DNA from: Octopus vulgaris | Lineage: Eukaryota | Direction: 5' to 3' | DNA: 64,000 bases | NCBI GenBank assembly: GCA_951406725.2 | Contig: OX597833.1 | Coordinates: forward strand, 46,438,001 to 46,502,000 | Shown: piece after piece, positions 2,220-60,145 of the stretch | How the letters are laid out: each line of letters opens with the position of its first letter | Numbering within the stretch: position 1 is the first letter of the stretch | The notes under the pieces: generated by a model | Told to the model about the DNA's origin: nothing | Seen by the model: only the letters and a program-made list of their open reading frames with translations | Database searches by the model: none | Position numbers and translations under genes: made by a program

Positions 2220-2395
2220 ATCAAATAAACAAACAATTCAAATAGACGAATAAGATTAACGGACAACGAAAAGACGTACATAAGAAGTGTATTAGCTTGA
2301 CGCTCGGTGAGAGAAGAGAGTTTGACGTTTCGAGAATAGCTCATCATCAGAAATGAGAAATGGAAAAGTCCAAAGAAGGAAAAGAAATCGCCAAT
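2220..2395 (-). mobile_element. ~200-nt (TA)n-embedded element, family A, with minimal HHR at 2321-2353
   Basis: Minus strand: TTT-CTGATGA-T-GAG-ctatt-CTC-GAAAC-GTC-AAA. Confidence 0.75.
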
Positions 2396-2456
2396 ATATA
2401 TGTGTGTGTGTTTGTGTGTGTGTATGTGTGTATCTATGTATGTATGCATGTGTATA

Positions 2457-2690
2457 TATTGGGTCATCCCATAAATAATGCGGTTTTCTTATACTTCTTT
2501 TCTCCTTCAAAGTTATGATAAACAGAATTCTTTTTTTAATCTAAAATATACTCTCCTTCATTTTCTACATTTTCCACCTATCTAGTAGACTTGCAAGTCC
2601 CCTCTTCCAAAATTCACTTGTCCGTGACGAAGAATCCTCCTCCAGTATTATTCCGACCGCGTCTACAGAATTCATATTTTTTCCGTCTCA
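2457..2690 (-). mobile_element. mariner transposon 3' fragment (TIR + transposase C-terminus)
   Basis: TA-TTGGGTCATCCCATAAATAATGCGG TIR. Minus-strand translation SEFWKRGLASLLDRWK...VENEGEYILD* fits a mariner C-terminus. Confidence 0.75.
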
Positions 2691-3217
2691 TCTCATAAGC
2701 TCGTCCTCCTAGCGTTCATAATAATTTTTCTTTCTTCTTGGCTTAACAACCCTCACCGTTTGTTTTTACTGTCTTGTTCTCACTGTCCTGTTCTTGTTAC
2801 CACTTTCACCCTCCGCAAAAAATCCCAAATTTTGTTTAATTTGCTTTGCGTGAAGGACTGTTTCAACGAAGTCGCGTATTGTACTTGCCTTCGACGCGGA
2901 GTAGATGAAACAGGGACAACTGATGAAGGGGATTATTCTTTATGTTGCATGTCTCGTTCCTCTGTTTGTTTTTGTTTTTTTTTTCGTTGTTGGAAAAATG
3001 TTTGCTTTCTATGTTTTTGTTTTTATGTTTTCGTTTCTCATTGTGTTAAACGTTTTTTTAATGTCCTGTACTCATATAAACAGGTATATATACATATATG
3101 TGTAGGTATCTACAAATATGTATGTATATATGAATATATTTATATATTATTATTATTATTATTATTATTATTAATATTATTATTATTATTATTATTATTA
3201 TATATATATATATATAT

Positions 3218-3365
3218 CGTAGTTTCGTTTTGTGTTCCTTTCTGTGGAAGAGCGTAGGCTCGAAACGTTAAAGACTTTTTCACTTCCCGAGCGTTATACT
3301 AATATATTTGTTTGTTGTCTACACCACCTGTCTTCGTCTTTTGTTTTTTTTTTGTGAATTCTCGC
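3218..3365 (+). mobile_element. Family A element, minimal HHR at 3238-3273 (A6U core)
   Basis: CTTT-CTGTGGA-A-GAGC-gtag-GCTC-GAAAC-GTT-AAAG. Flanked by TA tracts. Confidence 0.7.
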
Positions 3366-3453
3366 TATATATATATGTGTGTGTGTGTGTGTAAAGTGTA
3401 TATATATATATTAACGCGTAAGCTGTTGGGTAATTCTCAGTCATTTACGTGTA

Positions 3454-55957: not shown

Positions 55958-58665
55958 TCACCGACGACATTCTGAGCGAGCTCTGTTTTTTTAAGCATAT
56001 GACTCTTTGAGAAGCTTCTCTTAGACAAAATAATTATAACCGAATCACTAAGTTGCGAGGAAGGTAGACAAACCGTTTGTCAAGCGACGATGGGGCAAGT
56101 ACAAACATAAAGACGCGCATGCACACACACTAACATTTCTTTCAGTTTCCTTCTATCGGATCAAGTCACAAGGCTTTAATCGGGGCTATAGTAGAAGACA
56201 CTTGCCCAAGGTGTCACGCAGTGGGACTTAACTTGATACCATGTAGTTAGGAAGCAATCTTCTTACCACACAGCCATGGCTGCGTCTACGTCTATATATT
56301 TTAAATGTTATACACATCGTTGTTTACATCTGATGCAGTTTCAAAAGCATATTTACTGAAGAGCGCATACTGAAGAGCGTGTAACTTCCACAGGTTCTCA
56401 GTCAGAAATGGTCTTTAAATTCGTAACGATTTCTTCTTTCTTTTATTTATTTATCTATCTATCTATATATTTATTTTATTATTTACTTTTATTATTTAAG
56501 TTTATTTTATTATTTACTTTTTTCATTTATTTATGTGTTTTCATTTTATCAGCAACAATAAACGGTTTTATCTTAATCTTGATAAAATATCTGAGGGACG
56601 AAAAGAGGAAAAATCGCGGGGAAATGTGCCAACAGAATAACAAACACCATGTTCGTAATGTAGAAATTTACTTTGAACTCTTCTCTTAGACATCTTACTA
56701 CGTTATTTGTTCCCCCATCTGCCCTCTGAAATGTGTGTGTGTGTGTGTGTGTGTGTGTATGTGTCTGTGTGTGTGTGTTTGTATGCGTGAGTGTGTCTCG
56801 GTATTTCATTATTAGCGAGGAAAGCCATATTAGTTCAAAATAGCGATCTGTATATCATACTTAAAGTATATATTCTGTTGAAAGCCTTCTAAGCTGCAGT
56901 ATTCTCCGCGAGACAGCATCCGTTATAGACGTATTGTGTTAAAATAAAGCACACAGAAATAAATCAGCAGCAAGCAAAACTTGCCCAGTGGTGGTGATGT
57001 CAATGTTAAAACCGGATTTCTACTTGTTATATTTTCATCGGTAGTAAGTATCTACTGGCACCGCATTGCTAAGTGAAAATATAAACTGCGAGCTAATATA
57101 GTTAAACTGTGGTGGAAAAGTCACAGATATTGCATATATATATATATATATGTGTGTGTATGTATTGTTGCATATATATATATGTGTGTGTGTGTGTATG
57201 TATATATATATATATATATATATATATACATATAATACATATATAACACATGCATATACGTATATATACATACATATACATACATATATATGTGTGTGTG
57301 TGTGTGTGTGTGTGTGTGTGTGTGTGTGCGTGTGTGTGTGCGTGTGTGCGTGTGCGTGTGTGTGTGTGTGTGTGTGTGTGTGTGTGTGTGTGTGTGTGTG
57401 TGTGTGTGTGTGTGTGTGTGTGTGTGTGTGTGTGTGTGTGTGTGTGTGTGTGTGTGTGTGTGTGTGTATAGTTTGTGCAAAGATCTGCTTACTGAAATCG
57501 TTGGCAATAAGTGAAGCATATTATTTGGAAATGTTATCTGGAGATTTTTTGTAATATTGTTGTTCCCACCCATTTTATTTCGTGGAAATAAACAAAAAAA
57601 TGAGAAATGTTATTTTTAAAAGTAGAAATTGCACAAAAAAAAACAGAAAAGGGAAGAAACTGATCTCGTACTTTTGCTTTATAGCTTTGGGGAAGCTAAT
57701 CTCTAATGTCCGATGTCTGATACTGACTGGGAGATGTGGCAATGTTTAGGACTGGTGACGTAACTAACTGAAAGGGTTCTTTGTCTACCATTATAAAAAA
57801 GAATCCTACTTTGATTTAATGTTAATTCAAGCTGCAACGACAGAACGACACCAGCAGCAACAAATAATAATAATAACAACAACAACAACAACGACGATAT
57901 CAGCGACAATAATAAATAAGAAAAGAAAAGAAAACCGCGCTCTGATACTTAGACCGTTTTGTGTTTGTACTGTAATAAATAATACATGTACACACTCGTT
58001 ATATATATGTGTGTGTGTGGTGTGTGTGTGTGTGAGTGTGTGTGTATACGTATATGTTAAAATATACATACATACATATATATATATATATATATATATA
58101 TATATATATATATATGTATATATGTATATATATATATGTATGTATGTATGTATATATGTATGTATATATATATGTATATGTATATATATATATGTATGTA
58201 TGTATATATATGTATGTATGTAAATGTGTATGTATGAGTATATGTATATATGTATATATATATATATTTGTGTGTGCGTACATACTTATCACACATACGT
58301 GTGTGCATGTGTTAGTGTGTGTATGTGTGTATACATGTCTGAGTGTATGTGTTTTGTGTTTGTGCGTGTGTGCATGTGTATATGTATGTGTTTTGTGTAT
58401 GTGTGTATGTGTATGTGTATGTGCATTTGTGTGTGTGTGTGTGTGTGTGTGTGTGGCTCAAACATTTGCTTGTGTATATTTAGATGTAAATAACCACAGC
58501 TATATTATACATGAATGCATTTATATTGTATCAAGCTATTTATTTACGCATTAAAGTTGCAATTACTACGTAAAAAGAGTTATAATGGTTCCTAACACGG
58601 GCAACAAGCCGCGAACTGCGCGGGAGCGACTGAAGCCGTTATGTTTTGGCACTTTGCAAAACATA

Positions 58666-59078
58666 GGAGTGGCTGTGTGGTAAGTAGCTTGTTTACCAAC
58701 CACATGGTTCAGAGTTCAGTCACACTGCGTGGCACCTTGGGCAAGTGTCTTCTACTATAGCCTCGGGCCGACCAAAGCCTTGTGAGTGGATTTGGTAGAC
58801 GGAAACTGAAAGAAGCCTGTCGTATATATGTATGTATGTATATATATATATGCGTGTGTGTGTTTGTGTGTCTGTATTTGTCCCCCCTAGCATTGCTTGA
58901 CAACCGATGCTGGTGTGTCTATGTCCCCGTTACTTAGCGGTTCGGCAAAAGTAACCGATAAAATAAGTACTGAGCTTACGAAAGAATAAGTCCCGGGGTC
59001 GAGTTGCTCGATTAAAGGCGGTGCTCCAGCATGGCCGCAGTCAAATGACTGAAACAAGTAAAAGAGTAAAAGAGTAAA
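58666..59078 (+). mobile_element. SINE family 2, full length
   Basis: Homology to other copies. Confidence 0.92.
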
Positions 59079-59686
59079 GCTGTTTTCTAACCAAAAGCTT
59101 CATACCCCTCTCTCTGTTTCCCTCCATCGTCTCTATCTGTACACTCACGCACATAAATACAGATATTCAGACACATAATCAGGAGTATGTATGTATGTAT
59201 GTATGTATGTATGTATGTATGTATGTATGTATGTATGTATGTATGTATGTATGTATGTACGTATGTATGAATGCGCAGGGACATAGAAATAATCGGACTG
59301 AATACCCGATCGCGCGGTTAAACCATGGAAGTTAAGGACTCCTAGCCTTTTTTAGGGCATCCTTCTAGGAGAAGGTAACTCAGGTAACTGGGATAACTCT
59401 AACATAAAACCTGCGGCTCAGTGGTTACCGATGATGTTGACTTGTTCTTTTCAGATTATGATTGCTGTTGCTTAGTGAGGGGGATTGACTCGGTGCACAG
59501 CCTTTCCTCACTTTAAAAAAAATTATCTTGTACAAGCATTGCACGATAACAATATTGATTAATCTTCGTGCAATGGTCATACTCGATAACGAGGGGCAGC
59601 CACCATATATATATAAGAATGTTTTGTGTAATGAGATAAAAAAAAAACCAAGGTTGTATAGCTATTAGAGCATTTATAGATAGAAG

Positions 59687-59738
59687 GTCTTACAGCTGTT
59701 TCTAGGATATTAATTAATAATATCCCTTTATCGAAGAC
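59687..59738 (-). ncRNA. Type I HHR-like motif within a TA-flanked PLE-type fragment (~59615-59835)
   Basis: GTCT-TCGATAA-A-GGGATATT-attaatt-AATATCCT-A-GAAAC-AGCT-GTA-AGAC. Confidence 0.7.
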
Positions 59739-60009
59739 GACGTGCGAGGAAAAATTAAGTCAGTTAGTTTCGATGTGATACAAAATAGAGAATGAGGTAG
59801 GGGAAAGAAAATAGATGTAAGATATGTTAGTTTTTTTATATATATATATATATATATATATATATATATATATATATATGTATGTATATATATGTGTATA
59901 TATATATATATATATATGTTAGTATATATATATATATATATATATATATATATATATATATATATATATATATATATATATATATATATATATATATATA
60001 TATATATAT

Positions 60010-60145
60010 AAAGTCCAAAAGAACGAAGAACAAACACAAAAAACAACAACGCGCGGACGTGGTACAGGTAAAGTATTAGCAGATGCTCAGGGAAGGAAAG
60101 AAATGCGGTTTCACGTTTCGAGCAAAGCTCTTCTTCAGAAACGGG
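60010..60145 (-). mobile_element. Family A element (CTGAAGA core, G at cleavage site)
   Basis: Minus strand: GTTT-CTGAAGA-A-GAGC-ttt-GCTC-GAAAC-GTG-AAAC. Confidence 0.75.

Follow-up and report, generated by a model that had tools for sequence, protein, structure and literature searches.

Eight short copies of a minimal hammerhead element, with A6 and U6 cores, in a 64-kb stretch of the Octopus vulgaris genome

Eight copies of a compact motif

The stretch of DNA analysed here (the window) comprises 64,000 nucleotides (nt) of Octopus vulgaris contig OX597833.1 (assembly GCA_951406725.2, positions 46,438,001 to 46,502,000 of the forward strand) and contains a family of short dispersed elements, family A, in which each copy carries a minimal hammerhead ribozyme motif. 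All eight copies that the original prediction had reported from the sequence alone lie where it placed them and have the cores that it read in them (Table 1); they are named below after the position of their C3. Specifically, four copies carry A at core position 6 and four carry U, a change at a core letter that is normally fixed, and it is this U6 group, in which position 7 alone varies appreciably in pooled contigs, that forms the main subject of this report.

Table 1. Features located in the window, with positions counted from its first letter
Feature	Position	Strand	C3	Motif	Core	Remarks
A6 copy, most divergent	2221..2394	-	2350	2320-2353	CTGATGA	
U6 copy, N7 = G	3218..3366	+	3242	3239-3273	CTGTGGA	
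A6 copy with U4C	11176..11368	+	11247	11244-11277	CCGACGA	
U6 copy, N7 = C	12057..12257	-	12177	12146-12180	CCGTCGA	decayed
U6 copy, N7 = A	41480..41672	-	41601	41570-41604	CTGTAGA	C15.2U
U6 copy, N7 = U	42773..42976	-	42896	42865-42899	CTGTTGA	intact motif
A6 copy with U4C	43040..43230	-	43171	43141-43174	CCGACGA	
A6 copy	60011..60145	-	60138	60108-60141	CTGAAGA	G17
Broken, 5'-truncated long interspersed nuclear element (LINE), 3' part	60145..61130	+				zf-RVT and (ATT)n tail; opposite strand to the hammerhead
Penelope-like open reading frame (ORF), 3' part	1..1128	+				Cys linker and GIY-YIG, then 3' region to a TA tract
Second, more decayed Penelope-like GIY-YIG fragment	7438-7661	-				69% identical to 335-539

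The motif consists of a helix I of 3-4 base pairs (bp), the seven-base core, an extra base between positions 9 and 10.1, a 4-bp stem II closed by a G10.1-C11.1 pair, and GAAA; stem III is replaced by an ACGU palindrome. The extra nucleotide, the G10.1-C11.1 pair and the C3-G8 pair are present in 8/8 copies, the last of these in keeping with the claim that C3 and G8 are always retained. A companion claim, that the module as a whole is constant, did not stand, as five copies depart from it. In addition to the C15.2U of 41601, these departures are G12A and C15.2U in 12177, one broken helix I pair in 11247, one broken stem II pair in 2350, and the G17 of 60138, which is the sole exception to H17 (7/8 copies). 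The palindrome is intact in six copies and shows CpG decay in the other two. With respect to the core, only 2350 and 60138 are fully canonical (C3-U4-G5-A6-N7-G8-A9 and G12-A13-A14), the departures being U6 in four copies, C4 in three and G12A in one.

The pairing of the motif is well maintained across the copies. Helices I and II are paired in 60/64 cells (93.8%), versus 17-52% in slid controls, and stem II, the conservation of which had been set beforehand as a refuting test, is paired in 31/32 (96.9%). The only two-sided change is found at the outer helix I pair, which is C-G in 3/4 U6 copies and G-C in 3/4 A6 copies. RNAalifold over the copies detected no conserved structure beyond stem II. 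A generic descriptor of minimal hammerheads with positions 6 and 7 left free gave 8 matches in the window and none in any of 100 dinucleotide shuffles. In a search of Rfam at E values up to 5, no hammerhead family appeared among the 150 of 406 matches listed, which were of a microRNA type driven by microsatellites.

In 8/8 copies N17 is followed, 18-26 nt further 3', by a second conserved block made up of YGAGY and then TAATA. The YGAGY block shows complementarity to G12 and the 3' strand of stem II; the computed probability of the alternative helix between motif and downstream block is 0-0.33. In all eight copies TAATA is followed by a pyrimidine-rich tract, an arrangement of TAAT word and tract 3' of the motif that we take to resemble a branch site.

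In terms of boundaries, the copies measure 135-204 nt, which corrects the predicted size of about 200 nt. A TA tract, the predicted target, abuts the 3' ends of seven copies, the 42896 copy ending at a TG tract instead; the 5' end meets a TA tract in six of the eight. The chance expectation for such abutment is about 0.02 per end, and some copies of other repeats in the window abut TA tracts as well. The 3' end lies 93-105 nt beyond N17 in every copy, whereas the sequence 5' of C3 ranges from 7 to 80 nt (just 24 nt in the 3242 copy), and all eight copies span the predicted cut site.

Profiles built from the eight copies identified no ninth in the window (next E = 1.1 and 0.14); the match at 8097-8131 (E 1.1) is weak and non-significant, and was rejected as a further copy. 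Likewise, no tandem or inverted pseudo-long terminal repeat (pseudo-LTR) arrangement of family A was found in the window or at contig joints. The neighbouring 42896 and 43171 copies, which belong to different subfamilies, stand head-to-tail across a single TA tract (42773-43230, minus strand), the latter being an A6/C4 copy and the former a U6 copy. A read-through RNA of this segment would contain two motifs with the same ACGU palindrome, from which a mixed dimer could arise.

Read on the opposite strand, the copies could conceivably be tRNA-derived short interspersed nuclear elements (SINEs) transcribed by RNA polymerase III, with the hammerhead look a by-product of words similar to the A and B boxes. 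The opposite strand does have the words GCTCRG and GTTTCGAG some 26-35 nt apart and an A-rich end, and these words bear a likeness to the two boxes. ARAGORN, however, returned 0 tRNA genes, the A-box-like word sits some 60-70 nt into the element, and in the U6 copies the two box-like words are separated by T4 runs. A SINE would also leave the C3-G8 pair, the helix I swap and the N7-only variation described below unexplained. We regard this reading as largely refuted and very improbable.

The U6 clade and its variation

The four U6 copies form one branch on the downstream flank alone (90/93), and this grouping recurs in 90% of bootstrap trees built from that flank, in line with the proposal that A6U was amplified from a master lineage. 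The flanks, described in the original prediction as diverged, are in fact homologous, being 70-89% identical inside the U6 group and 48-58% between groups. Outside N7, the U6 copies are identical at 29-33 of 34 motif positions, and four of the seven departures among them are CpG transitions, as is typical of decay after insertion.

Parts of the segment 42773-42965 occur in 23 of the 24 runs listed, which bear four organism labels. For four runs, one per label, contigs were piled up on the 42896 copy at 80% likeness, with letters reported from 4% of depth (19,169, 19,013, 7,841 and 4,803 contigs per run; 50,826 in total). Pile-up coordinates agree with the window in 20/20 cases at zero offset, compared with 4 and 6 at one-base offsets, and place position 6 at 42893, N7 at 42892 and N17 at 42869. 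Summed contig depth is not copy number and favours near-consensus words, and the pile-up covers the U6 clade only, the A6 copies being too distant and U4C uncounted.

At position 6, no letter other than U was observed at 4% of depth or more in any of the four runs. The alternative that U6 is scattered decay of an A6 consensus was thus not upheld, as no A6 form reached this depth in 4/4 runs; what the pile-up shows is that the U6 clade has no abundant A6 form, not that A6 copies number zero. Judged from these sequence comparisons, U6 is inherited and not decay. N7 is the only position of the 35-nt motif that varies at this threshold, where C accounts for 24, 15, 20 and 21% and A for 24, 13, 23 and 21% in the respective runs. 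G8, G12, the palindrome and the cleavable A17 show no variant at or above 4%. Overall, 1/35 motif positions are polymorphic versus 16/96 in the flanks (Fisher p = 0.04), where the flank count excludes three positions with a private reference letter. Loose ends of the pile-up show other flank subfamilies joined to the same core. CpG decay was considered as a source of the C/U difference at N7 and set aside as unlikely, because the mirror change, G8A, is absent from the pile-up.

An unselected motif would offer another account of this pattern. Here the ribozyme would have been inactivated by A6U in a master copy that continued to amplify, with the apparent conservation reflecting young, near-identical copies together with alignment bias. 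Pooled depth does under-report private decay, and the Fisher p value is only 0.04. Among published systems, the Anolis Poseidon element PAc inserts in vitro without hammerhead activity (PMC11167929; this and the sources below are cited from excerpts of their text), Naiad Penelope-like elements (PLEs) flourish although they lack canonical hammerheads, and the latter study raises the possibility that hammerheads are mere parasites of PLEs (PMC8557442). Young age, however, sits poorly with U6 flanks that have diverged to 70-89% identity around a motif so much better kept, and N7 has undergone two separate high-frequency changes, with none at 34 other positions. A mismatch next to N7 would align without loss, yet none was seen, and different flank subfamilies are attached to the same core. 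Loss of selection on the motif strikes us as rather unlikely.

Probable Penelope-like affinity and the possible role of the U6 core

The features of family A have close published counterparts. Minimal hammerheads of metazoan PLEs share its type I layout, a palindrome as the only counterpart of helix III, the extra nucleotide between 9 and 10.1, the G10.1-C11.1 pair, a short helix I and a U-rich 5' flank, and are mostly dispersed singles from truncated PLEs (PMC4209133). Family A fits their published consensus (core CUGANGA) except at position 6; A6 and U4 are found in all 56 motifs aligned in that source, whereas family A includes U6 and C4; its stem II of 4 bp is another difference from the motifs of PMC4209133. 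Hydra, Neptune and Naiad PLEs likewise resemble family A in their preference for TA tracts, with (TA)n targeting listed for Hydra and Naiad, in a sense hammerhead near the 3' end and in having no clear target-site duplication (PMC8557442). The hammerhead table of that source has A6 in 34/34 rows, unlike the U6 copies, and the octopus motif Hydra-1_Obim differs from family A in stems II and III (PMC8557442). The universality of A6 in both sources has to be qualified, because the canonical core underlies the descriptors used in each; more specifically, U6 motifs would escape the search of PMC4209133, since its descriptor fixes the catalytic boxes.

Two further systems are informative with regard to the fixed 3' end. 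In PAc, reverse transcription starts at ORF +111-118 on an uncut RNA template with its cut site at +26, and the resulting insertion end, which falls some 85-92 nt beyond the cut site, and the AT-rich targets recall family A (PMC11167929). The PAc hammerhead overlaps the start of the ORF, whereas the downstream part of family A is T-rich and non-coding. Animal non-LTR retrozymes are, like family A, short non-coding hammerhead units related to PLE pseudo-LTRs, and occur as dispersed monomers (bioRxiv 10.64898/2026.07.22.740005, in excerpt). Retrozymes are defined as tandem arrays, whereas family A has eight monomers and 0 tandem arrays in the window, and its 3' end at a fixed distance from the motif is unlike theirs. 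Taken together, the layout and the fixed-distance 3' end at a TA tract support the earlier assignment of the motif to the PLE type, and architecture, rather than a junction, makes a PLE origin of family A very probable. Penelope-like expansions have been described in Octopus vulgaris (PMC13282606, in excerpt).

The window itself contains PLE remnants (Table 1). The ORF at its start, which is broken near 560-585, matches P0001 at 67% over 153 amino acids, and six database proteins with reverse transcriptase (RT) domains or PF26215 match positions 1-680 (plus strand) at 42-62%. By tblastn with six PLE proteins, only 1-680 and 7438-7661 match in the window, a search that remnants of other lineages could escape. 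The 3' regions of both remnants show no detectable homology to family A. Near 874-916 (plus strand) there is an apparent decayed hammerhead-like motif of another type, with a long AT-rich stem II and a CCGG palindrome.

The original prediction had asked whether 5'-extended copies connect to a PLE ORF, and none of the eight does. The sole long extension, 5' of the 60138 copy, was rejected as a PLE ORF, being the opposite-strand LINE of Table 1 (zf-RVT, E 1.7e-6), which we take to be Tx1-like. The junction of this LINE with the 60138 copy is direct and lies 7 nt from C3, the copy having lost its 5' part. An alignment of the extension of the 12177 copy to the 3' region of the window PLE, as an inverted piece of it, was also rejected; although 0/100 shuffles reached it, its score of 24 lies below those of at least 10 unrelated tiles of 1278.

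Relatives of the window PLE ORF were sought in collections of contigs, and 13 of 136 candidates in metagenome contigs qualified, with 0/50 in viral contigs and 0/93 in genome contigs. Five of these 13 loci have a hammerhead-like motif in sense orientation, 221-328 nt downstream of the match, five have none, and three have less than 100 nt of downstream DNA. Four of the five motifs have A at position 6 and one has G. Two of these five loci (L004 and L001) have a TA tract, 82 and 119 nt after N17, respectively. Family A was not found in any of the 13 loci, and its exact motif pattern had 0 matches in either viral or metagenome contigs. Two of the metagenome motifs (L005 3764 and L012 955) are near-identical PLE 3' motifs, one with A6 and the other with G6.

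The role of the hammerhead in PLEs is described as unclear (PMC8557442). Our preferred, though tentative, explanation is that the family A copies are 3'-end PLE remnants made from uncut RNA, and that the U6 core is a weakened hammerhead still under selection. The copies may be solo pseudo-LTRs or a non-autonomous PLE derivative. They would have arisen by target-primed reverse transcription of uncut RNA into TA tracts, with the RT/GIY-YIG protein of a PLE nicking TA DNA and priming about 100 nt 3' of the motif. Tandem source copies would pair via the palindrome; their cleavage would be slow and probably aided by protein, and the dispersed monomers would then decay neutrally.

With respect to the core alone, it is plausible, if short of probable, that U6 marks a weakened ribozyme that selection maintains and that is predicted to cleave. 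Consistent with this, N7, left free in the published consensus, is the only motif position that varies in the pile-up, and G8, G12, the dimer palindrome and the cleavable A17 are all kept. Changes in the CUGA turn that lower but do not abolish cleavage are known from the A6C hammerhead of phage Bcep176 and from a U4C viroid variant (PMC3088659, PMC7151607). The natural A6C hammerhead still cleaves, slowly at 3-10 mM Mg (0.04-0.05 per min) and well at 1-3 mM Mn (about 0.3 per min; PMC7151607), and cleavage by PAc needed added protein (PMC11167929). Bcep176 represents a single phage locus with C6, in contrast to the U6, the minimal dimer-type motif and the high-copy clade seen here. A stronger version, in which an active U6 hammerhead is predicted to have been fixed by selection in a highly abundant clade of short retroelements across several related animal genomes, is a possibility we view with more doubt; in that case a protein or the dimer context would replace the lost U-turn contact.

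Several observations weigh against a selected, cleaving U6 motif of PLE descent. The helix I swap is one event, and its covariation score was reached by 28/500 shuffles. Folding of the motif is no better than that of shuffled sequence (z -0.65 to +0.33 in four windows of 55-56 nt), although a weak signal is expected because the motif is so small. C15.2U occurs in 2/4 U6 copies of the window, yet has no row in the pile-up. Loop II and N17 are likewise invariant there, although hammerheads leave both free, so part of the invariance may be ascertainment. With regard to descent, the window offers no junction of a copy with a PLE ORF and no homology to the 3' regions of its PLE remnants. From the literature, pairwise mutagenesis of a type III hammerhead gave low activity for CUGA-turn mutants except the C3-G8 swap (PMC9901934), and hammerhead-dead PAc RNA inserted normally in vitro (PMC11167929).

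These last two results also fit a motif that no longer cuts, and in which fold or sequence is kept as a signal for PLE-protein binding, for a pseudo-LTR promoter or for splicing. The U-turn partners are altered in separate lineages, namely position 6, which is U in four copies, and position 4, which is C in a pair of A6 copies sharing 86% identity; all eight copies span the cut site, and the YGAGY/TAATA block in 8/8 copies indicates a non-catalytic constraint nearby. The idea of an RT/endonuclease recognition signal, raised in the original prediction, is nonetheless weakened, in that a PAc template starting at +20, and thus without the C3-A9 core, was still inserted in vitro (PMC11167929), and the PAc core is for this reason not an RT signal. 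Moreover, a signal read at the sequence level gives no reason for N7 alone to be free. A purely non-catalytic function seems to us about as likely as loss of selection, and less likely than a weakened ribozyme.

The element type is ordinary, and the interesting part is a fixed U6 with N7 free. A high-copy clade in which A6 is changed and G8, G12, the palindrome and a cleavable N17 are kept amounts to a natural experiment on the need for cleavage. Cleavage by U6 dimers would mean that the core is broader than currently accepted and that descriptor searches overlook entire families, this clade being invisible to searches based on CUGANGA; failure to cleave would mean that the fold is retained for a non-catalytic purpose.

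Among the papers listed in literature searches, we found no natural A6U hammerhead, although Lünse et al. 2017, which reportedly contains many PLE hammerhead variants and lay outside the scope of the search, may hold one. Excerpts of two reviews (PMC6155905, PMC6765202) and of PMC11014351 contain no natural A6U core.

Other repeats and motifs in the window

Apart from family A, the window contains another repeat family with a U3-A8 hammerhead-like motif and a CCTAGG palindrome, arranged in tandem and inverted form at 25434-26284 and 38199-38675. Position 3 of this motif falls at 25688 (minus strand) and 26073 (plus strand), with a related copy near 38490, and the family shows the typical pseudo-LTR layout. 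A single hammerhead-like motif unrelated to family A, with a CTGAGGA core, a 5-6 bp helix I and a GUC site, is located at 55914-55960 (plus strand). Further repeats include a LINE reverse transcriptase fragment at 18719-19294 (plus strand; RVT_1, E 1.6e-8) and a 184-nt unit that occurs both as scattered copies and as short tandem arrays (among other places at 4637-5054 and 39038-39799). A second family, with a length of about 400 nt, is interrupted by a microsatellite, as seen at 11499-11900 and 54630-55045.

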